A stretch of 60,591 bases of DNA, the filler included, from Dugesia japonica (Eukaryota), in assembly GCA_001938525.1 (NCBI GenBank). It is 5 parts of 5 records of this genome, joined end to end, with 100 filler letters (N's around TTAATTAATTAA, not from the genome) between each part and the next. Parts side by side here need not be neighbours in the genome. Positions count along the whole stretch, not along the records: positions 46,656 to 60,591 come from MQRL01626046.1; 4 more parts are not named here. One strand, given 5' to 3'. The position numbers and the translations under genes are program-made. Below the pieces are notes generated by a model. That model was not told the DNA's origin and did no database searches. It worked only from the letters and a program-made list of their open reading frames with translations. Of this stretch, positions 16,430 through 60,591 are shown piece after piece (position 1 is the first letter of the stretch; the number at the start of each line of letters is the position of its first letter).

Positions 16430-16598
16430 TTTGCTAATTGTAAAATCCAATAATTCCTGAACTTGAATTAATTAAAGTAACTACTGAACACAAAGTGCCC
16501 ACCATAGATAAACTATTAACATTTTCAATATATTAATAGAAACTTTAGGAAAGACCATTTATGTTAGGTCAATAACCATGTTTTTTGTCCATATTTTC
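16430..16598 (-). pseudogene. Possible degenerate second exon of the SLC16/MCT gene
   Basis: After an AG acceptor: KYGQKT, then in another frame IENVNSLSMVGTLCSVVTLINSSSGIIGFY, weakly like MCT TM3-TM5. Stops and frameshifts. Confidence 0.25.
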
Positions 16599-17291: not shown

Positions 17292-17396
17292 CAGGGGTCT
17301 CGAACTTAAACGGCCGCAGTAATGCTATAATNGATATAAATAATATTTCAATTTATACGACAAAATTATTGAATAGCCTCTTGTTTGCGACCCCTG
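17292..17396. mobile_element. 105-bp hAT-type MITE
   Basis: TIRs CAGGGGTCTCGAAC / GTTTGCGACCCCTG; imperfect 8-bp flanks AGATAAAC/ATATAAAA. Confidence 0.7.
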
Positions 17397-19335: not shown

Positions 19336-19339
19336 AAGA

Positions 19340-19920: not shown

Positions 19921-20859
19921 GGATTAATTTACTGAATTTCCCTTGAAGAAATTTTTATATAACTTAATAACTATGTAATTTGATTAACTGTCTCAAATAA
20001 TGAAATTCAATATAATATTCCAACACTTCATGGAAACTCTGTACCATTTTTCAAGCACTGCTAAGATATTATAGTCATATATCCTTCATCATCACCATCA
20101 GCCTACATTTCTGCGTGAATCTTTGTCTACAACTCGTCTGCCCCTCTGCTTTATTCATTCCTTCTTTCCTATAAAAATAAAAAAACAAACACTTTTAGTA
20201 ATTTGTAGAAAATTTTCCTTCATTTCTACGCTTTTATGACATCTATATGAATATATGAATAAAACCCTAATGTCCTGGGCATACTTTATTTATAATTTTC
20301 AACAATTTGTTTATTGATTTTATTTAGTTTTATAGGGACTAATATAATTATATAAACAAAGAGTTAAGTAATTATACTGAATATTACATAGCTATAATAA
20401 AAATTCAAAATGTTATTATTTTTAAAAAATTTTTCTAATAAAATTTTATGAAATATTTGGCTATATTGAAATTTTAAAATTTTTTCAACTTTTCTAATAT
20501 TTAATAAAATTAAAACCTATATTGAAATTTTTGAAAACTTATAAAAAAAATCGAAATATTATAATTTGTTTTAACCTTTCTAATAGTAAGATTTTTTCAA
20601 AATTAAATCTGTATTGAAATTTAAAAACCTATAATAAAAATTCAAAATTTTCGAAAATTACTGAATTTTTAACTTACCAAACTTTCTTTTATTGCTATTT
20701 TTTGTCGGAATTTTAATAAATTGAGTTTATTCTCACTTTACTTAACATTGCTTAAACTTAAAATAGTATTTTTAACAACAAACTTATAAATACCAAATAA
20801 TTTCCTGAGATATAAAGGCTTTTTGTTCTTTCAGAAACTTTTATTATGTATTTAATTAT

Positions 20860-21330
20860 TATTTTTCATTTTGTCTGATGATGAAATATATTATAATAAA
20901 GTTTTATCTTAAATGGCGTTATTTATTTTATACTACACAAAGTTTATGAAAATCCTGTAAACGGAATTGGATTTAAAAAATTATTTATTGGATTTGAATG
21001 TTGTATACAGATTGGAAAATTGAATCATGTTTATAATCATGGATAGTACAAAGATACATAATTTTTTAGAATTAACAGCATTAACAGAGAATAATATGCA
21101 AATTTGATATCTACCTCAATACAGTCATATGCTAAACCGAATAGAAAATTTTTTCTCAAATTTTAAGAATTATACAATTCTAAAACAGGCATCAATTGAA
21201 GAAAAACTGAGGCTTTTAATTGAAATGGAATTTGGGACTATTACAGAAACATATTTAAGGGGAAGATTCCAAAAAATGTTGCGACACATTGAAAGATCGA
21301 GAAACAATAATGTTATTAATTTTTTTAAAA
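20860..21330 (+). mobile_element. IS630-Tc1 transposase C-terminal remnant
   Basis: IIMDSTKIH ... YLPQYSHMLNRIENFFS (cf. IMDNAxIH / LPPYSPxLNPIE). Confidence 0.65.
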
Positions 21331-22689
21331 TTTCTATTTATGAATATATATATTATTTTCTAATAAATATTTCAAACATACGATAAATTTTTGGAAAGTA
21401 ACGTTAATAACAATTTTTTTTTAAATTTTAAATTGTTCGATAACCACATTAATTATTATTCTTGATTTCTTATCAAGTTAATATTAACCGTTTAAAAATA
21501 TAATTTAGTAAGTTTTTACTATGTAAAATTAGTTGCATAAAATTAGCTTTTGTATATTTTAGATTTCATTAAAATAAAGTAATAGCTTCGATCAAAGTAA
21601 ATTGTTGTTTTATAGATATTTGTATGTTTTATATTACTTATCGTTGATATTTTTGGTGTATTAACGTATAAATTATAACTGATTTCTTAAGTCGAGACCA
21701 AAGAGGATTAAACAATAAGACTAAAAATAAAATAGTAGATCTAAGCAATTTGAAATAAATTTTGAATGAATTATAAAAATAAATCAAATTCCCAATAATT
21801 CATTGAAATTGTTCAAATCTCAGTATAAGGAAATAATTATTATTTAATAATTTTAGCCAACGGAAGGTGGTCAAATTCTATTTTAATATATAATCAGTTC
21901 TATTTCAAGTATAATAATCTTACTAAGCATGTGTTCTAATAGTAAAATAAATGATGTTTAAAAATATTAATTGTAATTTGCAAAATGAATTACCAATTGA
22001 AGATTTACCTAACACTCAGAAAATATAAAATATTTGTTTTTGTAAATACCGAGTAAAAATAAATAAATAAAAAATTCATAAAAAATCATTAAAATTATTC
22101 ACTAGATTTGTCAATATATTTTAATAAAACTATTTCTTTAAAAATAAACATTCGTTTAATTTTTTAATGAAAATTTTTCACTAAGATAAAAAATTAACCA
22201 AAAACACCTGAAATTTTAATTTATTAAATCAATTCAATTTTTACACAACAAATAAAATTAAACAAATCTTTATAGCTTTATTTAAATCAATTTTTTACTT
22301 TAAATTCGATAAATTAATTATGAATTATTATCAGAATTAGATAATTAGGCATCCCATTTATTAGAATACAAAACGATTTTATCGATTGATTTTTCAAACT
22401 TAATAATAATAATAATTTAAAAATGAATGAGTTTAAATTTGTTGATGTAAATAAAAATGCGAAATAAATTTTGTGAATTTTTTAAAATCCTATATTGTGC
22501 AGATCAACAAGAAATCTATTCAACAGGTTTGTACGATATCATATGTTAAGTGCACATTAACTAGAATACCATAATTCATTTGGGAAATATTCATTTTTGC
22601 TAAATGTGATAAAAAAAATTATTACTTTGATCATTGGTTTATTTGAGATTGTATGATAATCAATTAATAATTCAAACAAAATAGCTCAC

Positions 22690-22905
22690 TTGTGATTAGA
22701 TAAATTCCTGAAAGAAGACTACCAGGCAAAATAGTCAAGGAGGTGTGTGACAATACAAAATAGGTTTCTATGTGTTCACAATGTATACCATAAGTAAAAC
22801 AAATTCCATCAACAAATACCATGCAAATCAATGAGCCTATAACAACAATCCAGCCCCAACTATCATCGATTGATGTAATATGCTGTTCTTGTTTTCTGGT
22901 AACTT
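22690..22905 (-). CDS. Monocarboxylate transporter (SLC16/MCT family) exon, TM1-TM2
   Basis: Clean AG...GT exon of 216 nt: VTRKQEQHITSIDDSWGWIVVIGSLICMVFVDGICFTYGIHCEHIETYF...PGSLLSGIYLIT, matching the MCT DGGWGW...DG...G...GSLL signature. Confidence 0.8.
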
Positions 22906-24049
22906 CTACAACAAAATTAATTTATAACATATGAATCAATATTTAATAAAATATGTCAGACATAAATCAATATTAAAAAATTTATTTTCAATATTTAATG
23001 TGATAAAATATTGTGAATGAACTTGCTTCTCAGTTAAATATTTTCACAATTTTAAGTGATGATAAATAAATAAAAAATACAGTTAATAAATTATGAATAT
23101 TACAAGTTCAAAATTCTAGAAATGAAAATCTAAATTCTAATTTGCAATAGATTTTGAAACGACAAAAATATTTCAACTTTTATTATTGTTGTGAAATGTG
23201 AAAGAAATTATATTAAAATTTTTATTAAACTTTAATATACTATAAAATTATTTCATAAATTTAAATTATTATTTTTAATAATTAAATTTGAAATATCTAA
23301 ATAAAAAATACAGTTAGAATTTTTATTGTAAATATAAAATGTAAAATTATTAGAACAATATTTTTTGAACCAAAAAATAACACAAATTACTATTCAGATA
23401 ACCTAATATTATAAGCAATTTAATAAATAAATAAATAATTAACAAAATCTAATTCAATCAAGCCACTAAAAATTTTTTTATAAAGAAAATTGAAAACGAG
23501 CAAGGTTAATATAAATTTATTCTAAAATACATATTTCAGAACATATTTAATGACAATCGATTCTGGATTATAAATATTTTTCTAAGAACAATTAATAAAT
23601 AAATTGATGTGTTATGCATTTACAATTGAACGTACATATGGGCTGGACATAATTGAAATCGCAAACGACAATCAATCAATTTTAGATGATATCATTAAAC
23701 ACTCAGTTACATTAAATGTCAAGATATTCTTTCTTCCTAAATTTTACATCAAACATAAACTTTGGAATTGGATAAAGATATTATCAATTTTATAATTTAA
23801 TAGTGATAAACTTTATATTTAGATTTCTATACAGAATAATTTAATTATTTTTAATTCGATGTTCCAAGCAGAAATACACCGTAATACTTAATAATTTACA
23901 CTGTTCAGTTAAATATAACAGAGTTTCTGCTGGATATGTTTTGTGTCTTATATAAATGTTGATCTTACACCTTTGAATTGATTAATGGTAAAGGATTAAA
24001 GACAAGGAGCCCATTCAACTATTTAGAATTTGTATCATAAAAAATTTAT

Positions 24050-26015: not shown

Positions 26016-26115
26016 NNNNNNNNNNNNNNNNNNNNNNNNNNNNNNNNNNNNNNNNNNNNTTAATTAATTAANNNNNNNNNNNNNNNNNNNNNNNNNNNNN
26101 NNNNNNNNNNNNNNN
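26016..26115. other. Artificial contig linker
   Basis: N44-TTAATTAATTAA-N44. Confidence 0.9.
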
Positions 26116-31355: not shown

Positions 31356-31782
31356 ATGAGTGAAACTGTTCATCCAGCGGTTGCAGACGTAATTTGAAAA
31401 TTATTTTTGCTAGTTGTAATTTTAAGTATTTTATTAGTACAAATCAATTAAAGTTACTGGGTTAAAACCAGGAGAAAAAAAATATTGGTGTGCCTGTGGT
31501 TTAAGTAAAAATCAGCCATGGTGTGATGGTTCACACAAAGATACTGGTATAACTCCATTAGAGTTTGTCGTTCCAGAATTAAAACCAGGAGAAAATGCTG
31601 AAACTAAAGGTTATGGAATGTGTCAATGCAAGCATAGTAAAAACAAGCCGTTTTGTGATGGATCACATAAAAAATTACAACCAATTGTAGCGGATAGAAT
31701 AAAGGAGTGTAGTAAAAACGGCCATCTTGAAAAAGGCCAGAAAAAGTTGTGTACGAATTGCGGCCATGTTCCTGATTTTTAA
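31356..31782 (+). CDS. CISD3: CDGSH iron-sulfur domain protein 3 (MiNT-like, two CDGSH domains); exons 31356-31388 and 31438-31782 (possible further 5' exons)
   Basis: 49-nt GT-AG intron. [11 protein letters not shown]|[40 protein letters not shown]...[21 protein letters not shown]...[10 protein letters not shown]. Missing from the supplied ORF track. Confidence 0.9.
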
Positions 31783-34448: not shown

Positions 34449-35246
34449 TTATTTTGTAAATTTTATTCCATATCCAATTTCTGCACCACCAGATACAGGA
34501 ATGTCCGATCCAGTTATGTGCTTAGCCATTTCTGAAGCTAGAAACATGCATGCATTCGCAACATCAATAGGTTCTCCAAGGTTACCAAGTGGTATTAATT
34601 TTTTCATTTTGTCAATTTCATTTTCATAAATAAGTCCACCTTTTATTCTACAGTTATCAATGGTATTTTGCACAAGTAAAGGCGTATTAATGATACCAGG
34701 AGATATACAGTTTACACGTACTCCATTTTCCGCTTCATCCAAAGCCAATGATTTCGTCATAGCCGTTATAGCCCCTTTAGTAATAGCATATGTCACTGCA
34801 TTCCTTTGACCAATCGAACCAACCTGGCTGCTCATATTAATTATGCATCCGCGGTATTTTCTCAGCATCGGCAATGAGTACTTTGAAAACAAAAAATGGC
34901 TTTTAACGTTAATACTGAACAACAAGTCAAGATCGGAACTAGAAAAATCATCTATTTTCCTATCTTCTGGATGAGTGCCAACGTTATTTATTAAACAATC
35001 TAATTTACCACCGTGCACATTTTCTAAATAGTTAATAACTGATTTTATATCATTCTCTACAGTAACATCACAGAACAAAAACATAATATTTCGCCCATTT
35101 AATTCGTTAACTATTTTGTTACCATTCTTTTCATCATTTGAACAGAAAATAACAGTTGCATTAGTACTAGCAAATTGTTTAACACAAGCAGCACCAATTC
35201 CTGAAGTGCCACCTACTATTAAAATTATTTTGTTATCGAAATTCAT
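34449..35246 (-). CDS. HSD17B14: Short-chain dehydrogenase/reductase, HSD17B14 (L-fucose dehydrogenase)-like, intronless
   Basis: Intact 265-aa ORF: GGTSGIG, NNVGTHP, SS..G.IGQ, YAITK, ALDE...GVRVNCISPG and C-terminal GGAEIGYG typical of HSD17B14. Confidence 0.85.
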   Translation of the reverse strand: MNFDNKIILIVGGTSGIGAACVKQFASTNATVIFCSNDEKNGNKIVNELNGRNIMFLFCDVTVENDIKSVINYLENVHGGKLDCLINNVGTHPEDRKIDDFSSSDLDLLFSINVKSHFLFSKYSLPMLRKYRGCIINMSSQVGSIGQRNAVTYAITKGAITAMTKSLALDEAENGVRVNCISPGIINTPLLVQNTIDNCRIKGGLIYENEIDKMKKLIPLGNLGEPIDVANACMFLASEMAKHITGSDIPVSGGAEIGYGIKFTK

Positions 35247-35712
35247 GATATAAATATAATTAAAAACGAAATAACGTATTTAAAACAATACAAAATTTAT
35301 GTTTATCTCAATTCTTAATGAATAATCATATAAAATCAAAATCCAAAGTCTTAAAAAATTCAATGTATGTAATAACTCTTGTTTCACAAAAAAGCCTAGA
35401 TTTCTAGGTTAAATTGAAAAAACTAATAGAAATGCAATAAAACAAAATATTTCAAAAAATGAATCATTAACAATTTGAAAACATCTATAAATATTTATAA
35501 ATATAAAATTATTTTTAAATAATATAAATTTAAAAAATAGCTTTTACTAAAATTTATGCTAACTTTTAATTTAAATAAAAATATTGTAAATAAAATTCTT
35601 AATTTTGATTGTTTTACTTTAAATGAATCAAAACCATTTGTTGTTTTAAAACAAATTTAAAATAATTATTAAATAATATTTTGTCAATATTATTGTATTT
35701 TTGAAGTCTCAA
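35247..35712. promoter_or_regulatory. Putative bidirectional promoter between divergent HSD17B14-like and AMMECR1 genes
   Basis: 466 bp between head-to-head start codons; no specific motif identified. Confidence 0.4.
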
Positions 35713-36669: not shown

Positions 36670-36769
36670 NNNNNNNNNNNNNNNNNNNNNNNNNNNNNNN
36701 NNNNNNNNNNNNNTTAATTAATTAANNNNNNNNNNNNNNNNNNNNNNNNNNNNNNNNNNNNNNNNNNNN
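36670..36769. other. Artificial contig linker
   Basis: N44-TTAATTAATTAA-N44. Confidence 0.9.
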
Positions 36770-44011: not shown

Positions 44012-46411
44012 TCAGAAGCTTAAAATAAATAATGTCCATTTGCCTTGTGCTATTGTCTTGTGATCTGTTCTCACCAAAAGTCTTTTTCGATACAAATATC
44101 GTTTAAAATGGTTACAAAAATAGTAAATGGTCAATAATTCCTTTCTTGTTATACCATATCCTTTTTCATGATCTGATATTGCATGTGACCCATATGCAAT
44201 GACTTCTACTAAACCATTTTCATTTATTTGCGATAAAACTGCTTCAATTGCATCAAAACTCGCATCTGTGTCTAGTACAAACATCTTTTTGATATCTGGG
44301 AAGCTCAATATCGGTGCTTTTGGTAATGTCTCTTTTATCTCATTAAAAGCTTTATCACAATTTTTAGACCACACAAATTTTTTATTGTTACTTCTACATA
44401 GCTCTTCCAAGCTTCTAGCTTTCTTTCAGTAATTATTGATAAATCGTCTATAGTAATTGCATATTCCCAAAAGCTTCTTAAGTTCTTCACACATTTAGGT
44501 CTTCCAAAATTTTTTATCGCTTCAATTTTTGTTGGATCAGTTTGGACTTCATTCTTGTCTATGACTTGTCCAACAAATTTGACTTCTGCTGGCAATAAAT
44601 GAAATTTTTCTGGATTAATTCTCAACCCTGATTGTTGAATTCTTTTAAAAATTAGGTCTAAAATTTTATAGTGCTGCTCTAAAGTTTCTGAAAATATCAA
44701 TATATCATCCCTGTATACCATTGTTCCTCTAAATCTTCCTAATACTTTTGTCATTAGTTCTTGAAACGTTCCAGGTGCTGCAGCTTTACCAAAAATCATT
44801 TTTGTGAAACAATACTGTCCAATTTTTGTAGAAAATTCTGTTTTCTCTTGTGAATCTTTATGTAACGGAACTTGATAATATGCATTACCCAAATCAATAG
44901 TACTAAAATATTTTGCACCACTCAAATCGTCTAGTATTTCCTCTACATTTGGCATCAAAAATGCCTGTTTTTCTGTGATTGCATTCAGTTTTCTGAAATC
45001 TAGACATGATCTATCGTCTTTCCTTTTTTTTCCAACAAATATTAACCGAGTGTTCCATTGAGAATTACACTTCCTAATAATGCCATAGTCAAAAAAATTC
45101 TTGATAGCTTCATCGATATTATTCTCTAAATGCATTGGTTGTCTCCATGGTTTCGTATTTATTGGTTCTTCATTTGTAATTATTTGATGTTCTGCCGATA
45201 TCCCAGTTGTCTGCCATGAATATATCTTTATGAATCATTATAACTTTCTCTAAATTCTCATTTGGCTTGTTAATCAATATTTTTATTNNNNNNNNNNNNN
45301 NNNNNNNNNNNNNNNNNNNNNNNNNNNNNNNNNNNNNCTGTTTTCTCTTGTGAATCTTTATGTAACGGAACTTGATAATATGCATTACACAAATCAATAG
45401 TACTAAAATATTTTGCACCACTCAAATCGTCTAGTATTTCCTCTACATTGGACATCAAAAATGCCTTGTTTTCTGTGATGGCATTCAGTTTTCTAAAATC
45501 TAGACATGATCTATCGTCTTTCCTTTTTATTCCAACAAATATTAACCGAGTGTTCCATTGAGAATTACACTTCCTAATAATGCTATAGTCAAAAAATTTT
45601 TTGATAGCTTCATCGATATTATTCTCTAAATGCATTGGTTGTCTCCATGGTTTCATATTTATTGGTTCTTCATTTGTAATTATTTGATGTTCTGCCGATA
45701 TCCCAGTTGTCTTCCATGAATATATCTTTATGAATCATTATAACTTTCTCTAAATTCTCATTTGGCTTGTTAATCAATATTTTTATTNNTCTCTATACTC
45801 TCTTTTCATCCGTTGTATTACGTCCATACTTTGCTTTTATATTACAAAGACACATTTATTTCTTCAGTTTTTACTTCGTCTTGTATGTCTTCCAATTCTT
45901 TTATTGTTTTAAATACATCGTCTACTTTTTCTATTTTTCCTGATTTGATTTTATGTTTGATCTTTTTGTCGTTGTAACTATTTATTATTAGCTCTTTTGT
46001 TAAGTTCTCATTGTTCCATTTATAAGCCATTAACTTTTCTACCAATCCTTCAATCTTCTTCTTATCGATATTTATATGCTCTCCATTCCTTCGATAATTT
46101 AGAGCTTTCTCCATATCTTTAATCATTGTTGATGGCTTAAAGAAAGCCTTTGTGAATCTTTCTTCAAATCCCAATGATTCGTCTTCATTTTTAAAGATTT
46201 CACACAGTTCTTTATCTATGAAAGCAACTACAAACCAACTCCTTTGGCCTTTCTTTGTTCTGTTTATATTAAAATACTTCGTTGTCGTCAGGATAAATGT
46301 TTCGATATCATCGCCCAATTTGAAAATTCTGGGGTTTATGGCTTCTTTTAGCAAATCTAATGATGCGTTGGTCGCCATATAAGTTAAATTCCAAACCTCA
46401 GAACTCTCCAT
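44012..46411 (-). mobile_element. Gypsy LTR retrotransposon remnant: gag (45842-46411), RT (44335-45135), RNase H (44012-44410); protease deleted; RT start duplicated across a gap
   Basis: CLDFRKLN, FSTIDLGNAYYQV, YRDD (degenerate YLDD), LDTDAS, EL, RTDHK. PBS-like TGGCGACCA at ~46369-46377. Confidence 0.9.
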
Positions 46412-46555: not shown

Positions 46556-46655
46556 NNNNNNNNNNNNNNNNNNNNNNNNNNNNNNNNNNNNNNNNNNNNT
46601 TAATTAATTAANNNNNNNNNNNNNNNNNNNNNNNNNNNNNNNNNNNNNNNNNNNN
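46556..46655. other. Artificial contig linker
   Basis: N44-TTAATTAATTAA-N44. Confidence 0.9.
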
Positions 46656-47010: not shown

Positions 47011-48749
47011 GGTACATAGTAGTGCCTCAAAACACTAGCAGTTATCACGGACCCCCCGGGGGGGTGGCTCAGAAACACATTACGATTGTGCTAAGATTTT
47101 TTGTGCGATGATTTCTTGGTTAGTTTTTTTTCTAAGATTTTGTAATCAAAGATTTTTTGATCCTGGTGGTGAAGTGTGTGTGTACTTTTAAATTTTAAAA
47201 TTTGTGTGTGTTTGGCTTGCTAAGGCGGTTTTTAAACAGTAGGTCAAGTTGAGTGTGCGTGGTTGTGTGTGTGTGTGTGTGAAAGAAGGGTTTTGGACTC
47301 GAGGAGGAGTTGGAGATCTTGGAAATAATTTTTTGGAGTTTTTAAAATTTGGTTGTTGTTGGACAAAAATTTGGTGGATATACTGTCTAAAGAACTTATG
47401 GTGTTGGATGGATGGATTTGGCTAGAAGTGTGGTAGCGCATCAGATCAGTCATTTGAGTTATCGTGGGTGTGTTTTTTGGGAGGCTGTAAGTTTCTATGT
47501 GGTAGATGTAATTTGTTGGTTGATGTGTTGTTGGAGAGGTAATGGGATGGAAAAGATTTTGTATGTCAAAAGTGCTTTGATATTTTATTTTAAGGGCTTG
47601 AATTTGATTGGTTGATTTTTGTAAGTAGTATAAGTGTGTTAAAAAAATTTTTCGGGAGGTGGACAAAGGTATGTGTGGAATGACAATTAATTATCGGATT
47701 TTTTAAGATTTATTGCAAATATTTTAGGCTGGAGTGTATGACGTCATAATCTTTTGAAATCTTTATTTTAGTTAAAATGATGAATTTATTGAAAGTTTTG
47801 ACTTGCATACCTATTGCATTTATTTTTTAAAAAATCAATAAAATTCCCAGGCACGTGTTGCTGTGTTGCATTCTTGATTTTTTTATATTATTTCCAGATA
47901 TAGGTCAGTCTAAAATTAACATGATAAAATATTCAAATAAAATTTTTTCTTTACAAGATGATAAAAAACATATAATTTTTTCATAAAAAACATATTAGTT
48001 ATGTAATTTGCTATAAAAAATATATTACTTTTGACAGATTTTTAAAAACAACATATTACTAGTGACAATTTTCTTTAAAAAACATATTAGTAGTAGCAAT
48101 TTTTCTATAAAAATCTCACTAGTCATGCATTTTTTAATAAAAATATATTAGTCATGCAATATTTGTTATAATAAACATATTAATTGAGAGCATTTCTTAG
48201 AACAAAATGATAAAAACATAGAACTGTTTTCATAAAAATCATAATTTCATGAAACCTTTTCATATATAACTAATAAGTCTATATAAAAAAACTTTTATAG
48301 GGTTTATGAGTATATTATTTGTATTATTTACATAGCAGAGTAATATTTATATAGCAAATCTATATTTCAAGGTTTATGAGTATAGTATTTACATATTAAC
48401 CGTGTAAAAAGAGGTCGCCATGTAAAATGCATGTTCATGAAATTAAAGCCTTATTTATTTACTAATTATAAACAAATAAAAGAAAACAATTATCCAATAA
48501 AACATTTATTAATATAGCATTTATTAATTAAACCTTTTTTTCTCATATTCTTGAGTCATCTTCAAAAAATTTTTCTTTTAAAATTTCATAATGGTTCTTG
48601 TTTTCATTGAACGGGAAATCCGATTGAAGTTCTATGTTGAAATTGTTCATAACTTGAAACATGTCTATTCCGGTTGTCTGCAATAAATGATTGAAATATT
48701 CATTCATCATCAACTGCATATATTCATGAAGAAGTTCTAAATTTCTAGG

Positions 48750-49480
48750 TTAAAGGATGCTATTACAATTTGTATTAGAGCTTGATCAGGAAGATAAATA
48801 GGGTTGGTCTCAAAATTGATTTTGAAACCAACATCGACATTAGATTGAAGTTGAAATTCTTGGCAGCTTTAGCGTTTGTTCCAATCGATGATGCGAAGAA
48901 CGTTTTTGATCATCTGGCAACTACATTTCCTGATGAACTTCCCGACCAAAAAATTCGACCAACCAAATCGAAATCGAAAAGCTTTTCATGAATTTTTATC
49001 GACCAATCAAAATGCTTCAATTTTCAAAATACTTGGTAGCGAGAAGGGAGGGATTTTCCAATGCGATACTATTTACCTACTAACATGCATTGAAGGTTAA
49101 GGAGGTAGAGATCCTCAGTTTCCAATCAGGGTTTGGAATCATCACGAGACAGCAACAGAAGGGTAACCTAAGACTACAAACTGTTGCTAGGGCTTCCATA
49201 ATGTACTCAATGCTTTACTGTAATGTAGTAATCCCAGTATTTGGTATTTGTTTGATGGTCTTTAAACGTACATTAACTGTCATAGGCTTACTCTAGCCAA
49301 TGCACAAACATGTTGTCCAGAATTAAAAGGATAGAAATATCAATATCTCCAAGGGATAGTTTCAAACATTGTGCAGCGATATCAAGTGAAACAGGATAAG
49401 ATGAAATATTTGAGAAGATTAGCCAACTTGCAGTAGTAACAAGGTCTGATAAAACAGTAATTACTATATAATGTAATTCA
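48750..49480 (+). mobile_element. MULE/Mutator transposase C-terminal remnant
   Basis: GCYY...LIRKINRVGLK...LAALAFVP; later WNHHE...PKTTNCC*GFHNVLN...PSIW, typical of MULE transposases. Confidence 0.75.
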
Positions 49481-50845
49481 GAGTGTCAAATCTTCTAATT
49501 ATTTACATTTTTTATGAAAAATGTTGATTTTTAAGTATATTTTATGTTTTACTTTTTTTACTTATTTTATTAGTAGATAGATATGTCAGCACGGAAACAG
49601 TAACCCCCTTCGCCTCCGTCGACTGTTTTTGACAAGTTGGCTGTTTTGTCATTTTTCTCACGTGGGATTTTGATTGGACATAACGAATACATGAAAAATC
49701 TTTTTGAATTCCGGTTGGAATGTTCGAATTTTCATCGGTAAGATTGAATATCGAAAATTTATTTTTTAAATTTTTCGGTCAAATTTTTTCGTCTGGTTTC
49801 AAATCTGCTATCGATTGTCTTAGAATTAAAAGGTGAACATTTTGTATATGATTTCCTTATGAATATTCTTGGTTCTCTCAGAAAAGGTATGTCAACACAG
49901 GAACACTTTGACTTGTTTTTTAAATTTCTTGATCAAAACTTTTCGTGTCACTTTGTAAATAGTACTATTCGATTCAGAATAAAACTCTAAACATATTTTG
50001 TAAAAGGTTTGTTGTAAAAATATGCTTTGTTCAAAAGATAGAAAATGGTCAGGTACCATGTCCCACCTTGGATAAAAAATTATTAACTCTGAAAATACAT
50101 ATGATAATCAAACAAGTTTGATATCGTTGAACTCAGAATAAAAAACTGAACATATTTCATAAAGGGTTTGTAGTATAAAAATGTTTCGTTCAAGAAATAA
50201 TATATATAATTATATAATTAATTATAAATTATAACTATAATTAGATTAATAATAATATTTTTAAAATAGTTTTTTAAACAATTCAACTCAGAAATAAAAA
50301 CTCTATAGAAATTCAATTTTAATTTTCTTAAAACAATTTTTGGTCTTAGTGAAAATAAAAACATTATTGATATAACAAGATTTATTTCAATAAATAGTTA
50401 ATCTTAAAATATAAATGCATTTAATTATTGAAATAATAATTAATAAAATACTATATGTTATCGCTTTGATCAATGGGTTATCATGAATCGTTAATTTTTC
50501 ACGTAAAATATCAGTCAAGTCAACTTCTTTCTTTACTTAAACTGGTTTCCTGGTAACTGAATAATTATTATCGATATACTCTACCATACTATCTATAATT
50601 TTTATCAATATTCATTGTCAATAAGTTGAACAATTTACTTTTCGTTTATATTATTTAAAATCAAAATCAATTAATATACACACACATACATAGAAATAAA
50701 ATATTTTCATGACATCATAGGGCCAAAAGTTATACAAAAGGTAATTAATCATACATATTACATAATCTAAAGCATTAAAAATCATGTACACACATAAATA
50801 GTTACTTTATAAACCAAGTCAATATACAATATTTCATTAATAAAA

Positions 50846-51656
50846 ATGCAAGAATCGAAGGATACTGCAGCAACAATTTGTTTCTAATCGAAAAAGACCT
50901 ACTTCGACAAAACAATTACTTATTCGTTTCAAGTAACATTTACTTTTATAAGTACAATTATTAATTTTCATTTAGAAACAAGTAAATATACTCAAATCGA
51001 AATATACCTTGCAGTTAACGAACTTTAACAAGGCTGATCAAACGGCTATTAACGATATTCTATCAAAAATTGACAATACCATGTTAATAAAAGATAGTGC
51101 TTTCATTGATTCAAAGAAAATAATCATCAAAAATTGTGTGATAATAGTAGATATACTAGGATATAAGAAAATTGGTGATGTCACAAAACCTATTTGCGAA
51201 TTTAAAAAGGCTGAAATATGCATGCAACAAGTTATCCTTACCAAAGACAATGTTATGACAATTGTAATTGATTCTGGAACGCCACGAGATTATTACCAGT
51301 TCTAGATAAGGTTTTTCCTAAAGCCGATTATTTATGCATTCCAAGTATAATTTGAAACTATTATTACTGTTATTATTATAATTTAGGAACCGGTTATACT
51401 AAAAAGATGTCCATTCAGTTTGCAAATATTGGAAATCAGTATAGAGGATAAGACAATAATCAAAAATCTTTTATCAAGAATTGATAATATGTTGAAAATA
51501 GATAATGCATCATTCATAAATGATTAGGAATCGAATGAAAATAGCTATCCAAGTGATAAAAACTACTTGATAACTGCAATATTCAAAGGATTCAAAAGAT
51601 ACAACGACACAATTAGTCCTGTTTGGAAGATAAAAACTTTTCAAGATTTTGATTGA
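50846..51656 (+). pseudogene. Unknown internally duplicated two-domain gene (or tandem gene pair) with introns 50933-50975 and 51345-51386
   Basis: Phase-0 GT-AG introns after TYSFQ and IYAFQ. Repeats LQLTNFNKADQTAINDILSKIDNTMLIKDSAFID and LQILEISIEDKTIIKNLLSRIDNMLKIDNASFIND align. Three in-frame stops. Confidence 0.6.
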
Positions 51657-51858
51657 TAAATGTTTTAAACCCTATTTTGTTTATTTGTTTTCATTTAGTT
51701 ATNNNNNNNNNNNNNNNNNNNNNNNNNNNNNNNNNNNNNNNNNNNNNNNNNNCACTACTTTGTTAATTTTTATTAATGGTATAAATTAAAGCACAATTCG
51801 AAATAGCAAGATTTTGTAATATCACATTTTATTGTTGTTTTCATGCATTTGTATTGCA

Positions 51859-52045
51859 CTAGTTTTGTATTTTCTGGATTAAAATTTTCAAATCTGAAAT
51901 TATATTATAAACTTGATTTTGATAATATAAACTCTTGAGACCGAGTATTACAACTTTTCCACTAGCAAATACATTAACACAAGTAGGATTGTAGTTAGTA
52001 AGTCTCAATGCTGAAAATGATTCGGGTTCATACACACACTTGGTT
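51859..52045 (-). pseudogene. Divergent TATA-box binding protein (TBP)-like C-terminal repeat, 5'-truncated
   Basis: YEPESFSALRLTNYNPTCVNVFASGKVVILGLK versus canonical TBP repeat 2 [34 protein letters not shown]. Confidence 0.7.
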
Positions 52046-52049
52046 ATTC

Positions 52050-52880
52050 TTGCTGCCATTTAGAATTATGTGATTTTGGTCCCCTCTTCATCTTCTTTAT
52101 TTTTTCTATTTTTTCTTCTATTTTATGCCATTCCTGTTTTTCTTCGGTTGGTGGCAATGTTCGTTGGCCTTGGTATTCATTAAACACGGCTTCCTTTAGA
52201 TGAGCTAATTGACGACCTTGGTAATCAACTTTGTATATCAGGGTTGATGTACCTGTATGACATGATCCATCTGCTGTCTTGCAGTATGATCTCCCTTTCA
52301 TAGTCAAGTCTTTGCGTCGAAGAATGGTTCATATTCTTTGAGTTCTACTGTATAAGTCTCGATCGCTACGGCAAATTACCATACTTTACCTCTTATGATA
52401 TATGTTCCGTATTCGCAGTTGCCCTTATGTGAAGATATGCTACCCGCTGCTTATATCAGTTGGTCAATTACATGGCCTTTTTTGTTGAGGACTTGAGCTC
52501 CGGGTTTGATAGTAATTTTACCTGTTGTGAATCCTTCTTCACATTGCTGTCCTGTCAAGTGTACAGGATGTTTTACTGTCCCTGGATTAATTATCGATGT
52601 GTAACTGTGGTAACCGCAATGAAATATGAATGTCTTCACTGTCACTATGCATTCGTGTATTTGAGACTTATATTAATCTGATTCCTGATACAAATGGTAA
52701 ACTGAGTTATTTCGGAGTGAGATTTTTTCTGGATTTGCATCTGGATATTCCTCTGTGTCTATTAATGAGAATATCTGTTTTCCCACTTGCATACCATCAC
52801 AATAATATACCAATATGGCTTCACTTCTGCCCATCATTAAGAATAACAAAAATATCGAAGTGGTTAAAGCTTGCCAAGAA
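52050..52880 (-). pseudogene. Envelope glycoprotein, chuvirus-G-like (class III fusogen), N-terminal ~270 aa
   Basis: Signal peptide SIFLLFLMMGRSEA|ILVYYCDG...FSLIDTEE...LYQ...ECIVTVKTFIFHCGYHSYTSI...QQCEEGFTTG...AGSISSHKGNCEYG...W..AV...YCKTADGSCHTG. The Cys/motif spacing matches the chuvirus-like glycoprotein pattern (GYDC...SLL...LLQ...C...YCGMHSH...C...G.C...W.NVV...C...G.C) as I recall it. Confidence 0.65.
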
Positions 52881-52979
52881 TTTCGTTGAGGCAGTCGTGT
52901 CCACCCAATTTCAATTTAATTTAGTTGATCTCATACGATTCAGATTACTCTAGTTTCGCTTTCATAGGATGGCTGTGGC

Positions 52980-53397
52980 TTAAGGCATATTGCCTCAATA
53001 AACTTTTTCCAGCCCCCGTGTTGCTTTATTAGCGGTACAATTTTATTCTGCATCAGATCTACTATGGGTAGCTTACTGAGAATGAAGTTTTTTGACGGCT
53101 TACTTCTGGTTATAGATAAATGTGTTTGATTGATCAAATATGCGATAGATACTAATATCCTTCTTTTGTTGGCTCATCTTGTAATAATTCATCTAATACT
53201 CCCCTCAGGTTATCTCTCGTACCATAGCTGGTACCTTTATTAGCGGGAAATTTCTTGATGGCCGATTCCAATTCCTTTACCAATGGTCTGAGACTGTCAG
53301 ATAGCTGGAATTTCCCAATCCTTATTTTCAGTTCCGGATATAACATTAATAACAATTGTCGGATCACTATTTCTGTTGGCATATCGTCCTCTGCCAA
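52980..53397 (-). pseudogene. Bcl-2-family domain split by a 1-nt frameshift at ~53162
   Basis: BH3-like LSDSLRPLVKELE. BH1-like LRGVLDELLQDEPTK(G)RILVSIAY, restored by one G (AAA G[G]A AGG ATA TTA). BH2-like IVPLIKQHGGWKKFIEAI. Confidence 0.75.
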
Positions 53398-55873
53398 ATT
53401 TCCGCTATATTATTCTTGTGACACTGCTGCTAATCTCTTGGTTTGGTGGTTTACCGATGTTGCCAATCTTTTTTCTTTTAACGCCTCTTCCTCTTCCGGT
53501 TGTCCCAGAGGTTTTGTTATAGGCCTACCTCTACTTTTAGGTTCAGTAATTGTTTCCGCATCCACTCTTGTTAGTGCTGGTTTTGGTGGTGCATCTTCTT
53601 CCGTTTCTGTTGGGTTTTTCATTTCTAATGGGTGCTTTTGATCCATTAATTCATCCATTACCGATGAGGGAAATTCCTTTGCTATTTTGCTCAATATTGG
53701 TGACAATAGCTGTTCCTCTAACACTGATTTTGTTGTGATTATTGGTAGGTCGTCGATGTTCTGTGTTTTCTGGTTCTCTTTTATCTGTTCCTTGATACCC
53801 GTCAATACTCCGTTTACGTATAATTCGGTTATTTCCTCCATTCGATCCTCTAAATCTGGTGGCTGGGTTGTCTGTGGCTCCTCCTCTACATCTAACTCGC
53901 AGATTTCTCCTGACTTTGCATGGCATTGAAATATGTGTTTATCTTCGTCATCGTTTTCAACCAATTTACCATTTATGTATAAAGGTTCCATTGTTAATCC
54001 ACACTCTTACCACTTGTCGGTAACGGCATCCATTAAATCCATCATGTTTATTCCTTGTGGCTTTAATCGACTTTACTTAGTCATGTCCTGCTTATTCTTG
54101 CCTATATTCAAGTATAATGTATAATCCTGAATGTTGGTAGCCGCCGATATTTCCTCAGCATATTTCTGTCTAATTGTGAGCCATTGATTTTCGATTTCTT
54201 CTGGTATTTCCATCCCATCGTATATATCGTAAATTCTATTCATTATCATCCAATAGGTTTCTCAGGGTAACTTTTCTTTATCCGCTTGTACTCTGTTAAC
54301 CATTTCCTCTACTTTACGCATCGCTACTACTTCTCTTGATGCCATTTGCCGCATCCTTATCATTCTCTTCTCTCCAACCGTTGTTTGAGTATGTTTTCTC
54401 TCCTCTTCTGTCAGCTTATCTTTCTTTCCCAATACTATAGAAAGTATTTTTATCTTGATTGGTTCTATCTCTTGTTTATATAGGTGTTCCATTTCTCCCA
54501 TGATTTCTAGTGCAGATCTTCCGTTTTTTGTTACCCACACATCATAATCTATACCAGGATGTTTATCTAATATTATTAATTCGATTTCCTCTCCTGGTTT
54601 CACTCCGTAATCATATAAATGATTTTTTCTCGCGCTGAAATCTACTAGAGCACTTGGGATGCATACACATTTATCTTCTAAATACGGATAGCCTGCCTGA
54701 CCCAAGGGCCGATTCCAAGTCTTCTACCAATAATCCATTGAGCGTTAATTTCATATTTCCTTCTGGGTTGTATAACCATAATTGGTAGTCTGACAATCCC
54801 ATGTTTGATATTAACCAATCAAAGTGTACTAGCAACCTCTCTGTCTATTTGCTCTCGAAATTGGTAACCAATTTTATAACCTCTAGTAACTCCTTCTATC
54901 GATTAGTTAATTTGAAATATACTTCTTTCTTAATTGTATAGTAAAGTTTCTGGGCGCCTGTTAGTATCTCATCGATTCGAGCTAATGATAATCGTGATGC
55001 TTCCTTTTGTTCTACCTTAGGATAGTTCATCAATCTCACTTCCTTGAGTCGTTGTTTCTGGTTTTCGTGAGACTTTGCGGGAATTATTTCCTTAAGGAAT
55101 GTTTCTTCTAGTTTATGATATAACCCGATAGTATCTATTTCCTGGAATACTATTTGTGGTCTTTATACCAAACCCCAATTTATTAGTTTAATTAATGTTG
55201 CTTCATGGGGGCGCATTCCGTAGTAAATTAAACTTTTATCATCTGGGAGAATGTTGATCCCTATATTACCGATTTGCAGTCTGTGACAGTTCCGATTTCC
55301 GGTCCATTGATGCTGATCATTAAATAGGGGTAATTTAAAAAATGAATTTACCGTTATTCATTTGATGCCATCCACTTCTCTCCGTTCTATTTCATTAATG
55401 GCTTCTTTTAAGTGTCGTAATCCCTTTGGTGCTAATTTTAATCGTTTTGGGATGAATTCAGGGTTATTATGCCATACACATTGTATTTCAAATCCATAAT
55501 CTTTTAACGCGGTTTCCTTGTATAATTCCGCAATAAAATCCGATATTGTCTTCTACCAGTTTGCTTTTACTTTTGCGTGTACTTGTGGATGTTGGTACAA
55601 CCTGAGCAACTGATACATCACTGGTCTTTTCCCAGTAATGATTGTTGATGCTTCTATTGTTTTGTAAATAATCTCATTAGTCCATTCGAATTCTGGTGAC
55701 GTAATCAGTATTCGGTTCCTGGTGTCTTCCATCATCGTAACTTCCGTGGTTTCATCATATTGGTTATAGATTTGTCTATGAGTTCTAATCATATTACACT
55801 GATTTTTGTGTTGTTCGTTGAGTAAGTTTCTTTTTGCTCACCTCGCTTGTTGCACCTGTAAATCTTGGTTTTG

Positions 55874-56860
55874 CTATTTAAGCCAGTGGTTTTCTTGTTG
55901 GACTTTATTATATACATTGTCATAAGTGTTCTGCTGTACTAAGTTGACCTGTTCTTTATTTTGATTTACTTGTTGCCTTAATCTCTCGTTTTCATGCATC
56001 AAGTTATCCAGATTCGTGTTTGAATTTCGATTGTAACTTGTTTGGTTTCCATTTGGACATTCCTTCGCCATATGGCCTCTTCTGTTACATTTATAACACA
56101 CGGTTGCATTTTTAAGGAAACAAGTTTCTACATTATTATGTGCAAAACCGATTATTGTTGTTGTTGCCTTTGCTTCTGCATTCTCTTGCTATGTGTCTTC
56201 TTCTCCCGCAAGCATTACATTGTATATCTCGGTTGTTTTGCCAATTATTTCGTTGCAAGTTGAATACTCCGCCATTTTCTCCGGGGTAATTTGGCTTAGT
56301 ATTTCTATTACTCAGTTCCTGCACTAGCGACAGAGTTTTCATCATAGACTGGGTATTTGGTATGAAATCCGATATTCGCGGAATGGTTTCTTCAGTCTGA
56401 GCTTCTACATTAAATACTCGTTCTGTTGGCCGATCGGACGCAATTCGCAATATTGCTAATGAATCATGTAACGTTTCTGGTCTACCTAATTTTACAATAG
56501 GTTTTGCGGTTTCGTCTTCCGTTTAGAAAGATGGCTAGTACTTGGCTATCTTCCCATTTTTCTCCTAATGCCAATTTTACTCTTCTCTTGAGTTCCATTA
56601 TATAAGCTTGGTAGGTTTCACCACGTTGTTGTTTCCGGTGAGTAAATTGTTCAAGGTCCTGGCCTGTTAATTTTAGATTTTGAAAATTATCAGTTAAAAT
56701 TTTCTCTACATTTTCCCATCTATCGGGAATACTTTCCATTCCATTGGTGTTATCCCAGAATACGGTTTTAACGACTCTCTTCGCTTCATCGTCCCATCCG
56801 CAGGTTTTGACATACATTTCAAAATTTTGTAAATATTCGTCCAATTTCTCCGGTATTCAG
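55874..56860 (-). pseudogene. Gag: capsid-like region plus CCHC zinc knuckles
   Basis: DEYLQNFEMYVKTCGWDD...RKQQRGETYQAYIMELKR...FLNG; CNACGRRRHIAREC; a partly deleted middle knuckle FC..HNNVETC; CYKCNRRGHMAKEC. Confidence 0.85.
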
Positions 56861-57639
56861 CTAAAATATTCGCCTTCGAATTTTATTTTCCATTCCGGGA
56901 GCTGTGTTTCGGTTTTTGTTGAATTAGTTTTTTCTTTATCGGGATGGAATTTTATTTCAAAATTTTTGGTAACTGGTGGGTTTGTTTAGTTTCCTTGGTT
57001 TTCCTTCGTCTTCTGTGCTTCCTTGGTTACCACTTGCTACNTCTGTTAATTCTATTTCTTTTGATGTATAACTTAGTCCACTTAGTCGGTTTCTATCCGT
57101 TTAAGGGTTACTGAGTGTTCGCCTCTGGATTATTTGATTTTCTTTGTCACTTGTGCTACTGTTGGAACTGATGGTCTCTACGGTTTGTTTATTGGGATCT
57201 GATTTTCCGAGGACACAGATGTCTCCTTCCTGGTCTAAATATAGTGATGTTTTGATTTTCTTCCTCGAGGACTATTTGCGTCTGACTTTTAAAATTGAAC
57301 TTGGTGTAGGTAATCCGTTTGTGCTAGCTCGGGTAGCTGGTTTCCTGTTATCAGAGTGGGAATCTATTTTATTACAGTCCGGCTTGTTAGTTGCCTATTG
57401 CGCTTCCTTAATTTCTTCCTTTTAAATTCCTTAATTAAGTATTCCTTTATTTTTCCTTAATCAAGTCTTTCTTTTAACTGCTAGGTTATCTCTTCCTAAA
57501 TGTGGGAGTACCCATTTTTTCATAGTATAGGCAAACTCTTCTGTTTTCCTTCGTTTTATTCAATGTAATGTAATGTATTCAATGTAATGTAATTCATGGG
57601 GGAGTACCGAGAGTTTTCTTATGGATCGGGGCCCCGTTT

Positions 57640-58230
57640 GAAGAACCCTTTTTCGTGCAGGCGAACGCTTCCGGCTTCTCTTCCTTTATATTCTTCCTCT
57701 AATCAGGCTTCCTTTAGTGTGCTTCTTTTCTTACGTAGGCTTCCTTTAATATGCTTCCTTAATTTTGCTTCTTTCCTCACGTAGACTTCCTTAAATATAC
57801 TTCCTCCTTGTCAGGCTTCCTTTAATATTCTTCCTTGGTGTTTCCTTCCATACGCAGGCTTCCTTAAATATGCGCGCAGAAACATATCCACTATATACCT
57901 AATTATTTCTTCAATTATGGTCCTTAGACAACTGTTGTGGCTACTTTTTACGAAGGTGATAAATCTTCTGATTGCAATTTACCAGTTGGGGATCTATATT
58001 TTCCATAGCTGTGTTCATAGTAAGCATTACTGGATATTCTTCCTAATTTCTTCCTGTTAATCTTCCTTTTATTATATCTTCCTTTAATATCTTCCTTAGT
58101 TTTCCTCCTGATTAGCTTCCTTTGATTTCTTTCTAATTATCTTCCTTCCTGATTAGCTTACTTTAATTTATCTTCCTTTACTTTATCTTCCTGTAATTTA
58201 TCTTCCTGTAGTTTATCCTCCTTCCTGGTT
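57640..58230. repeat. Degenerate short repeats (GGCTTCCTT / ATCTTCCT) in the element leader
   Basis: Many (C)TTCCT(T) units with irregular 12-35 bp spacing. Confidence 0.6.
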
Positions 58231-58836
58231 ATGAATTTCCATGATGATCTCCATGGATATCTCAACATGATCTCTGAAAATATAAAATAACGATTTCTTA
58301 TATATTTTACTTCCTATTTATAACCTGATTTCTATTCTGTTTCATTTACCCTAAATATATTATTTTAATATCATAATAAAACTTCCGAAATTTCTTTCTG
58401 ATTCATTTATTCTCAATATAATACTTTTTGAATTTAAAATTTTAATAATTTATTTATTCAGATATTAATCGTATATTTATTCATTAAAAATGTTAATAAG
58501 ATTTGACATCATATCTTTCTTGATTGATTTATTACACGTCCCTAAAGGTGTTTGTTTCCTGAAAGATTTTGTCAAATCCCGGCTGAACCCACAAAATTCT
58601 TGTTTTGGTTCCACTTGATGGATGNNNNNNNNNNNNNNNNNNNNNNNAGAGGATCCCCCTTCAAGAATTTAATCTAAATTCCCTATTTAGATTTTCGGTA
58701 TAGAGCGGTTGACCTTCAACATTTACTTGAGGTACACGCTCGTATACCTTTAATTCGGGTTCGTTACTTTTCCCTATATCCTAATTAATGACTAAATTAA
58801 TAACGCGTTAAATAACGAAAATTTATTTCTACATAT

Positions 58837-59142
58837 TTACATAAAATCGAGCGCACCCGGGTCTAACCACTGGGTTGGCTCGGGTGGTGTGAAGTCAAAA
58901 GCGGCTTCATCATCCTCGCTGTTCCAGCGAGTCCACGTTTCCTGCTCTAAGCGATTAGATAAATCGGCAATATATTGCTGCAGAAACTCTATCTTATGAT
59001 TCAGGATCTGTTTTGATTGTTCGGCCAGCTCTCCTTGTTTTTTGAATATTAAATCGAGTTTTTTGATCAATCGGTTACGCTGAGTTAAATTTCTCAATAA
59101 AGCTCTCTCATTCTGACGCTTGATATGCCTTTCTAACGGCAA
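58837..59142 (-). CDS. Small coiled-coil ORF just inside the putative 5' LTR, function unknown
   Basis: Uninterrupted 101 codons (TTG start), heptad-like LNHKIEFLQQYIADLSNRLEQ and an acidic/aromatic tail. Confidence 0.4.
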   Translation of the reverse strand: MPLERHIKRQNERALLRNLTQRNRLIKKLDLIFKKQGELAEQSKQILNHKIEFLQQYIADLSNRLEQETWTRWNSEDDEAAFDFTPPEPTQWLDPGALDFM

Positions 59143-59167
59143 CTTTTAGATCAAGCGATCACACCGA

Positions 59168-59555
59168 TGTAAGCTACTTGGGAGTCGAATACGAGGCACT
59201 AAACAATAATCCTAAAACTCTTGAATTTCACGGTGAGCTTCTTAGACTCACCTAACAATATATAATCTTTTATAAATTTAATAAAGTGATAACTGCTGCC
59301 CTGATTTTAATACATATATGTTTAATGATCGTATCCTTAAAATTATTAATGACATTATAAGATGAACAGTATTGTCTATCCTTGAAGTAATATTTAGTAT
59401 AATAAAAGAGAACATTTGTTGAATATGATAACGATGATAATGTCGAAGATTAAAGTCGATAAATAAAAGCTGATCATTAGGATGTAAGAAACCAGAGAGA
59501 GTATAATCGGTAAAAGATTTCTAACGAAATGCATATGAGCATGCACTCTATTACA
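59168..59555 (-). repeat. Putative LTR (388 bp, TGTAA...TTACA)
   Basis: 5-bp inverted termini TGTAA/TTACA upstream of the Gag-containing region. The following sequence TCGGTGTGATCG is only weakly PBS-like, and no second LTR is in the window. Confidence 0.45.
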
Positions 59556-60591
59556 TTTGGAGTATGGGATTATTTTCTTTTCCGGTGGTACCTTTTGATT
59601 CGAAAAAATTTAATTTTTGGGATTTTCATGCACCGTTAATGACAGAAAATTACACTTTTGCCTATAATCGTTTGTCGTATACATGGTGACTAACTAAATC
59701 CTTAGAAAATCAATAGCTGAAGATATAAATAAACAAAAATATATCCATATTTTAGATTTTTAATTAAATAATTCAATGATTTCCTCAATCTTCAAAAGTA
59801 AAACAAATTAAAATATTGATTAAAACATGAATCGATTAAAGAATGATACTGATTAAAGTTCAAGTTTTGCATAACTTAGAAACACATAAGTAAAAAATAT
59901 TTTCCAACTAATGAAATTTTAATGTTTAAAAATTGCAAACTAGCAATTAACACTTCAATTATTTTTCATTATTGTAAAACGTGGGCACGTGAATATAGCA
60001 CCAAAGTTGTGGTAAAATAAATTTTATCATTCATTAATGTTAAATTATGGTTATTAAGGTAAACCTAATCATCTAAATAAATTATCAGCTACCCAAGAGA
60101 TAAACTGAACATGATAATTCTTGTTTATATGTAACACACAAATATAGAGGATATACAGTGTGTAGGGTGACACATGCACATGAATTCGTGCTCAATATGA
60201 GTTGGCACCAAAATTGCCATTGGTATGATGAGTAGGATACATTGAGTTTGTCATGTCAGAACTTGCGAAATGAGTGCCATCCCTGATATCATTGGTGTAT
60301 GCACATGCTGTACTACTCATTTTACACAGTAACTATGATACTGCTGCTCTAACCGATTGTTACATAATCTAATAAAATCTAAGAAACCAGTTACTATGCC
60401 AGTGAGTTAAATTCAATTAAGTTAATTTACAGAAAAATAGAACATTAAATTCCACTATGTTGAATGTTTAATTTTCAGAAATATCAATAAAGTCTTAATA
60501 ATTAAAAGTTGCATTTAATTTTTTTTAAGTTGAGAAAAACTTTCAATACAATTTTTTAATGAAAAATATTTGCAATCAAAACTTGTTTAAC

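Follow-up and report, generated by a model that had tools for sequence, protein, structure and literature searches.

The window analysed here, a stretch of 60,591 nucleotides from Dugesia japonica, holds on its minus strand a Gag capsid region, two CCHC zinc knuckles, a long region that we call X, a Bcl-2-like domain, a hydrophobic signal-like stretch, and an env, in this order. The initial annotation had already proposed the order Gag, Bcl-2, and env on one strand, and Pfam, motif searches, and the profile of relatives bear it out. All features given below lie on the minus strand unless stated otherwise. A probable 5' leader (57,557-59,260) includes purine-rich tandem repeats (57,680-58,223), a 23-base gap, and a 102-codon ORF (58,837-59,145). 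No second copy of this region was found within the window, nor was any long direct repeat. The leader is followed by a low-complexity lead-in to Gag (56,990-57,520), whose coding status is uncertain. The initial annotation placed the N-terminus of Gag at 57,520, but these first 177 codons have 6 stops and match no Pfam family. The Gag capsid region itself (56,518-56,985) has one stop and matches Retrotrans_gag at 56,769-56,518 with an E-value of 7e-6, above the Pfam cut-off. It also shows a weak match to the Gag of the database proteins P0013 and P0033. The two knuckles (56,057-56,219) are in different frames, at 56,219-56,178 and 56,098-56,057, and are collinear with those of P0099, a protein encoded in a metagenome contig (L001).

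Region X (53,420-56,050) is around 870 codons long, is interrupted by stops, and changes frame once, near 54,700. Pfam and PDB searches gave no match. Three weak ubiquitin-like stretches are not significant, and ubiquitin-like profiles built from three and five relatives found nothing significant in the window (best iE 0.06). None of 7,998 candidate proteins was related to the second half of the region, and the best-stretch search with its first half matched none of the 88 env relatives. An RGRP motif at 53,532-53,521 also precedes env in P0013, P0015, P0018, and P0019. Since region X has no detectable relative, the link to the Burro elements discussed below rests on Gag, Bcl-2, and env.

The Bcl-2-like domain (about 52,994-53,370) lies in two frames, with the shift near 53,170. 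Its C-terminal half matches a profile of six relatives (iE 4e-8), and its N-terminal half is weak (iE 0.16 with the profile, E 2e-4 in blastp to P0031). The relatives' profile itself matches Bcl-xL (E 5e-5), and the predicted fold of P0031 (pLDDT 54) ranks only Bcl-2 family chains, with E-values of 0.04 and weaker. The window pieces have no direct Pfam Bcl-2 match, and a word-based search with the Bcl-2/env piece among proteins of 470-2,000 residues retained none of 558 candidates. The linker that follows (52,891-52,993) has three stops, at 52,942, 52,933, and 52,918, and the initial annotation asked whether these are sense codons in the consensus. Two of the three are absent from all contigs aligned at those places. 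Bcl-2 runs into env without a stop and in one frame in P0010, P0012, P0013, P0029, P0031, P0037, and P0074, which supports the earlier proposal that the two belong to one precursor. The predicted signal peptide of env (52,817-52,890) has a hydrophobic core followed by a small-residue cleavage motif, lies at the start of the Pfam fusion profile, and has an aligned stretch in the relatives. A hydropathy scan with a threshold of 2.0 did not call it, as was the case in several relatives, and is not decisive.

The last element, the N-terminal part of a gB-type env ectodomain (52,054-52,816), has three stops and a frame change near 52,305. It matches Pfam Monjiviricetes_fusion with an E-value of 2e-24 over profile positions 6-186 of 653. 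Pfam, motif, and tblastn results thus place a gB/mononegavirus-type env after Gag on one frame path, with no pol in between. The initial annotation took this env as present and overlooked that it is incomplete: it is cut off at around 52,054, against a fragment of a TBP-like gene. The copy retains roughly the first 250 residues of an ectodomain of about 550, and the second half and the membrane anchor are missing, so this copy could not supply an envelope. The homology to env ends at 52,137-52,164 and that to TBP begins at 52,053, and 7 RNA reads leave the window sequence at this join. The fragment corresponds to the last 64 codons of the TBP-like gene (51,862-52,053; Pfam TBP, E 9e-8) and is 84% identical to residues 88-151 of P0100. 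It belongs to a separate high-copy repeat, with a summed contig depth of 14,000-24,000 per bin, and is outside the retroelement. Residues past 52,053 were considered as a conserved TP motif of env and rejected, since that DNA is TBP-like.

Along the coding path from Gag to env, 24 of 1,819 codons are stops (1.3%), against 307 of 3,653 (8.4%) off the path, a contrast that is somewhat inflated because the path was picked by eye and by homology. The path is not due to chance. In this sense the 5.4 kb of coding sequence described initially is real, but it is not "almost continuous": the path changes frame six times and its longest stop-free stretch is 198 codons. The window copy is a pseudogene and is predicted to yield no working protein. 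Between 3,373 and 3,817 contigs per DNA run match the stretch, in all 30 bins, and more than 80% of these are less than 95% alike. They represent an old multi-copy family spanning Gag to env; 24 of the 10,754 aligned pieces were listed individually. Of the reads in roughly one quarter of a single RNA run, possibly from another strain, 128 aligned and none was at least 95% alike, giving no sign of transcription of the window copy.

The lack of pol noted initially was confirmed. On the minus strand at 48,000-60,591, a motif search for D[TS]G, YxDD, RNase H, HHCC, and the integrase core found nothing, and tblastn with pol-bearing relatives gave no pol match from 47,006 to the end of the window. 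An IDSG at 51,264 was considered as a protease and rejected, as it belongs to a plus-strand ORF without family match. The position of pol in the relatives is informative. A pol domain was detected in 9 of the 88 env relatives, after env in all nine and before env in none, the other 79 being uninformative on the order. It is also downstream of env in P0103. In P0099, a single ORF of 3,703 residues encodes Gag, knuckles, a ubiquitin-like domain, a possible Bcl-2-like domain, Env, protease, RT, RNase H, and integrase. Its contig is collinear with the window at the knuckles and env, and the Bcl-2-like match immediately ahead of env is weak (iE 6e-5). It is one locus out of 289 pattern matches among metagenome contigs, and no LTR pair was found within its 15.5 kb. 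Other proteins show parts of this arrangement in one ORF: Bcl-2, env, and protease in P0012, and Gag, knuckle, X, Bcl-2, and env in P0013. Apart from P0099, with its weak match, no database protein found combines a clear Bcl-2 with Gag, env, and a full pol, and eight pol-bearing relatives (P0015, P0016, P0018, P0019, P0024, P0033, P0065, and P0103) have no Bcl-2 match. The series protease, (dUTPase-like), RT, RNase H, and integrase that follows env in the relatives is absent from this copy, in which other DNA takes over at 52,054 where the series would lie. Among database relatives, the best are 31-46% identical over long stretches (P0009-P0013, over Bcl-2/env), and the order of pol is thus read from relatives outside the window's own family. 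No relatives were found among viral contigs.

These results lead us to regard the locus, with a probability of about 90%, as the decayed 5' part of a Gag-X-Bcl-2-env retroelement, broken inside env at around 52,054, whose pol was behind env, as in the relatives, and was likely lost past the break. Since pol follows env in this lineage and the copy breaks inside env, neither an internal deletion of pol nor a pol-less family is needed. Both had been put forward initially, and both are unsupported because they assume that pol belongs between the knuckles and Bcl-2. A deletion at that place from a canonical gag-pol-env element would fit the usual order of errantiviruses, as given in the main text of PMC13524379, but is hardly tenable here, where pol precedes env in none of the nine pol-bearing relatives and where no pol lies between knuckles and env in P0013 and P0099. 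It is also very improbable that the locus represents a non-autonomous family that provides capsid, Bcl-2, and envelope while using Pol made elsewhere, in trans. The window copy does lack pol, and the stretch is multi-copy from Gag to env, the part over which sister copies were followed. Yet wherever pol was detected in a relative, it is behind env, and the copy is heavily decayed and stops in the middle of env, against an unrelated repeat, without anchor, polypurine tract, or 3' LTR. Non-autonomous LTR families without pol are bounded by paired LTRs and target-site duplications, and their internal structure recurs from copy to copy. The window copy likewise lacks pol, but its 3' break is ragged and inside a gene, whereas a pol-less LTR family would keep complete genes, a polypurine tract, and a 3' LTR. 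The locus is therefore likely an ordinary remnant of a kind already described.

Two variants are compatible with a 5' fragment broken inside env. It is unlikely, though conceivable, that later insertions split the element and that an 82-codon RT scrap at 47,006-46,761 is its leftover pol. The scrap is on the same strand, 5.0 kb downstream, and is 54% identical to the RT of P0099, 40-50% to those of other gag-env-pol elements, and 37% to a neighbouring Gypsy RT. These identities are in the ordinary range among Gypsy RTs, however, a six-sequence tree fails to place the scrap (support 0.67), and no remnant of the second half of env, of protease, or of integrase was found between it and the element. 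We consider it quite improbable that env and the TBP-like sequence were joined at 52,054 by an assembly error and that the true locus continues into env and pol. The draft scaffold is gappy, with 47 N runs, and one of these lies 300 bases away from the join. Near-identical pieces stop at 52,173-52,174, and none of the 24 listed contig pieces, out of 10,754, spans the join. But shared repeats interrupt contigs in any case, the join itself is free of gaps, and the window is full of broken and nested repeats.

The closest published counterparts are the Burro elements, giant Gypsy elements of planarians. According to PMC6431247, Burro has env between BCL2 and protease, and Burro and GYPSM1 combine N-terminal Retrotrans_gag and CCHC knuckles with a BCL2-like domain directly before a mononegavirus-fusion-related env, in a single reading frame. 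The window shares these traits, namely an N-terminal retrotrans_gag with knuckles and a BCL2-like domain directly before env. Its two knuckles equal the number in the D. tigrina element, against three in Burro-1 and GYPSM1 (same source). Unlike Burro-1 and GYPSM1, it shows no MATH, BIR, ankyrin, or Smc in a Pfam search of seven pieces, although decay lowers the sensitivity and some motifs may be past the break. Everything from mid-env on is missing relative to Burro, and the likeness to Burro-1 to -4 is drawn from descriptions of these elements. Decaying Burro fragments with stops and frameshifts have already been reported in Dugesia japonica (PMC6431247). The GAG-ENV-POL order has been published for platyhelminth errantiviruses with a gB-type env (PMC13524379, whose main text does not contain the words "bcl" or "Burro"). 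Compared by eye with the supplement of that study, Smed_errantivirus_5 and _6 share with the window env its cysteine pattern and the words SIINPGT, IETYTVELKEYE, and CEEGFTTG. As presented there, they have the gene order of the window's relatives and are intact, in contrast with our decayed and cut copy. Together with the low GC, this closest described env makes a planarian host likely. The nearest relatives (P0009-P0013, P0029, P0031, P0099, and P0103) have pol after env where it is present, and seven relatives have Bcl-2, signal stretch, and env stop-free in one frame. They differ from the window in an unalignable region X, and several have no detectable Bcl-2 and some up to seven protease-like domains.

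We infer that the window copy descends from an autonomous Ty3/Gypsy element, Burro-like and of the GAG-ENV-POL kind, which encoded a single long polyprotein. In the intact parent, Env would enter the ER by way of the internal hydrophobic stretch, and signal peptidase would cleave just after this stretch, which would keep Gag-X-Bcl-2 in the membrane. The anchor of Env would then bring the chain back to the cytosolic side, and protease, RT, RNase H, and integrase would follow there. Once inserted, the window copy would have accumulated stops and frameshifts and would have become joined to the tail of the TBP-like repeat through a deletion, an insertion, or a rearrangement.

On its own the window locus is of little import, being a dead piece of a type of element already described. 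It does expose a trap for annotation: flatworm-type gB errantiviruses have pol after env, and their 5' fragments therefore mimic pol-less families. The lasting question concerns the intact relatives. Extending an idea of the initial annotation, we tentatively suggest, with somewhat more doubt than confidence, that across this lineage the signal peptide of env may double as the tail anchor of Bcl-2. One cut by signal peptidase would then give a membrane-held Gag-X-Bcl-2 and a lumenal Env, and the element might block the death of the host cell at the membrane where it assembles. In the window and seven relatives, a BH2 motif lies 31-62 residues ahead of the point where the env profile begins; the spacing in relatives is consistent with this idea. 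No such statement was found in the literature searched, and Grohme 2018 may already cover the Bcl-2 topology or pol-less Burro derivatives. Compact natural relatives such as P0013, P0031, and L001 are easier to study than the 30-kb Burro elements, and it is in these that one may ask whether a Bcl-2 anchored by the env signal peptide protects the host cell.

The window, an animal scaffold of high AT content, is interrupted by gaps and crowded with broken repeats. Along its minus strand, from about 57,500 to 52,054, runs an A-rich coding path (~37% GC) that crosses seven frame segments; 24 of its 1,819 codons are stops, whereas off the path stops make up 8.4%. The initial annotation had followed an almost open frame here; given the 24 stops and the seven segments, this gag-Bcl2-env copy is a pseudogene. 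The inventory of domains without pol in the initial annotation was correct, as the Pfam and motif scans show. The seven pieces matched Retrotrans_gag, two zinc knuckles, and positions 1-186 of the 653 of Monjiviricetes_fusion, and gave no hit to pol families or to the Bcl-2 family. In the motif scan, which covered minus-strand positions 48,000 to the window end, protease, YxDD, RNase H, and integrase motifs were all absent.

The homology of env to its relatives stops at 52,137-52,164, followed by some 35 codons compatible with a variable loop. From 52,053 the sequence is unlike: these are the final 64 codons of a divergent TBP-like gene of small size (51,862-52,053, minus strand; Pfam E 9e-8, with TBPs of the PDB also matched), 84% identical to residues 88-151 of the TBP-like protein P0100 and without match before residue 88. 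Relatives of this tail (P0100-P0102) have 151-159 residues. In run X1, contig depth at individual positions of the tail reaches 16,000-44,000 (summed depth up to 44,000), and RNA reads diverge from the window sequence at 52,053, which shows that the tail belongs to a separate, very high-copy repeat. Related copies of this repeat yield RNA reads in both directions. Since env is cut off at the join, the copy lacks the second half of env, the membrane anchor, pol, and any 3' LTR. The join may be an assembly error instead of a genomic one, and none of the 24 contig pieces listed, of 10,754, spans it. A decayed A-rich ORF (50,976-51,698, plus strand), which matches no family and contains a ~25-residue internal repeat, points towards the TBP-like tail across a 50-base gap, and the two possibly form one DNA element. 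Among literature titles, we found none on a TBP-like gene carried by a high-copy mobile element.

A phmmer search with one window frame recovered 88 proteins, and for all except one the match lay at the Bcl-2/env end. In 3 of the 21 relatives scanned (P0010, P0037, and P0074), sub-threshold Pfam Bcl-2 matches lie immediately before env. A profile of six relatives matches the window at 53,197-52,994 (iE 4e-8) and 7 of the 88 proteins, six being its own training sequences; the N-terminal half of the window domain is in a different frame and matches weakly. A seven-sequence alignment retrieves Bcl-xL structures (E 5e-5), and a low-confidence model of the relative P0031 (pLDDT 54) ranks exclusively Bcl-2-family chains (E 0.04 and weaker). 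Hence, by sequence and by this model, the domain before env is Bcl-2-like. Its anti-apoptotic role remains putative because NWGR, the canonical BH1 motif, is not retained.

The absence of pol from the inventory had been read as a deletion or as the mark of a pol-less family. With the domains of P0099, the 3,703-residue polyprotein of metagenome locus L001, as queries against the 88 proteins, pol was found in nine, after env in all nine and before it in none; the remaining 79 proteins are either fragments or glycoproteins that stand alone. P0012 runs Bcl-2, env, protease; P0013 runs Gag, knuckle, region X (between knuckles and Bcl-2), Bcl-2, env; and P0016, P0018, P0024, and P0065 run env, protease, RT, RNase H, integrase. 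The 4,844-residue P0103 also has env before pol. L001, the sole metagenome locus found, holds a single 3,703-codon ORF that begins with Gag and two knuckles, continues through ubiquitin-like repeats and a weak Bcl-2-like stretch to env (~1,208-1,877), and then has two proteases, RT, RNase H, and integrase. The window copy is collinear with it at knuckles and env, and ends at the equivalent of residue ~1,470. That the window copy belongs to a pol-less family, as its inventory might suggest, is thus very improbable.

Contigs matching the stretch number 3,817, 3,373, and 3,383 in three DNA sets, with depth in 30 of 30 bins and over 80% of contigs less than 95% alike, which makes this an old, diverged, multi-copy family. 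Among the 40 rows listed of 1,552 (52,933 lies outside these 40), the window's letter at the stop sites occurs in none of 4-6 contigs per run at 52,942 and 52,918, and in nearly no contig at 54,009. The family as a whole thus does not share these stops. A strain difference or an assembly error may account for them, as those contigs lack the window's own allele too. In seven relatives Bcl-2 continues into env without a stop, and together with the contig letters this argues against a true stop between the two, in line with the fusion initially proposed.

Domain order, decay, the break, and the order in relatives are observed; from general knowledge of viral polyproteins we infer a possible topology. 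The hydrophobic stretch before env would serve as a signal inside the polyprotein; a cut after it would leave the upstream Gag-X-Bcl-2 tail-anchored, and the env anchor would bring the chain back into the cytosol for pol. From the BH2 GGW motif to where the env profile match begins, the distance is 52 residues in the window; across seven relatives it is 31-62. Since the stretch also occurs in relatives without detectable Bcl-2, it is, judging by sequence, probably env's signal first of all, and a Bcl-2 anchor only putatively.

Several polyproteins carry further domains. P0099 (L001:97-11208), P0016, P0018, and P0024 extend 500-1,100 residues past integrase, with two or three extra hydrophobic stretches (in P0099 at 3,304 and 3,593); these tails resemble a second signal-plus-anchor membrane protein within the same ORF. 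P0015 has four protease-like domains and P0103 about seven, besides ankyrin and C2H2 matches. Downstream in L001, an ORF (12085-13473, plus strand) weakly matches the RNase_T exonuclease (E 0.001), and would be an unusual accessory gene if part of the element. P0016, an env-pol retroelement polyprotein, is listed at NCBI under a Flavobacteriaceae genome bin as a hypothetical protein; animal contamination of that bin is likely.

Elsewhere, the window holds an orphan RT scrap of 82 codons (47,006-46,761, minus strand) and a separate decayed Gypsy element (46,420-44,012, minus strand) with a Gag-like ORF, RT, and RNase H. A stretch of 300 RT bases in it appears twice across a gap (44,838-45,137 and 45,338-45,637), likely a scaffolding overlap. 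Host genes are a short-chain dehydrogenase (34,449-35,279, minus strand) and a CDGSH iron-sulfur protein exon (31,438-31,782, plus strand). Decayed DNA transposase fragments lie at 3,301-4,524, 10,959-11,885, and 13,857-14,843; by eye they look hAT-like and Tc1/mariner-like. The four identical 100-base N spacers around TTAATTAATTAA (13,222-13,321, 26,016-26,115, 36,670-36,769, and 46,556-46,655) were rejected as biology, being scaffolding linkers with stops in all frames.

Env before pol agrees with two studies. In the giant Gypsy elements of planarians called Burro, env sits between BCL2 and protease in the same frame, and Dugesia japonica reportedly has decayed Burro fragments (PMC6431247). 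Errantiviruses of flatworms, nematodes, and bryozoans have a gB-type env and GAG-ENV-POL order, with ENV-POL matches in the three dugesiid genomes listed in the supplement (PMC13524379). Of the six listed Smed errantiviruses, Smed_errantivirus_5 and _6 are nearest to the window env by eye. The extra motifs of Burro-1 proper were not found in the window copy, which we therefore do not class with it. We consider it, with a probability of about 0.9, a member of the Burro-like GAG-ENV-POL kind, already known, that has decayed and is broken at its 3' end. By analogy with the relatives, other copies of its family would be expected to carry pol, behind env.
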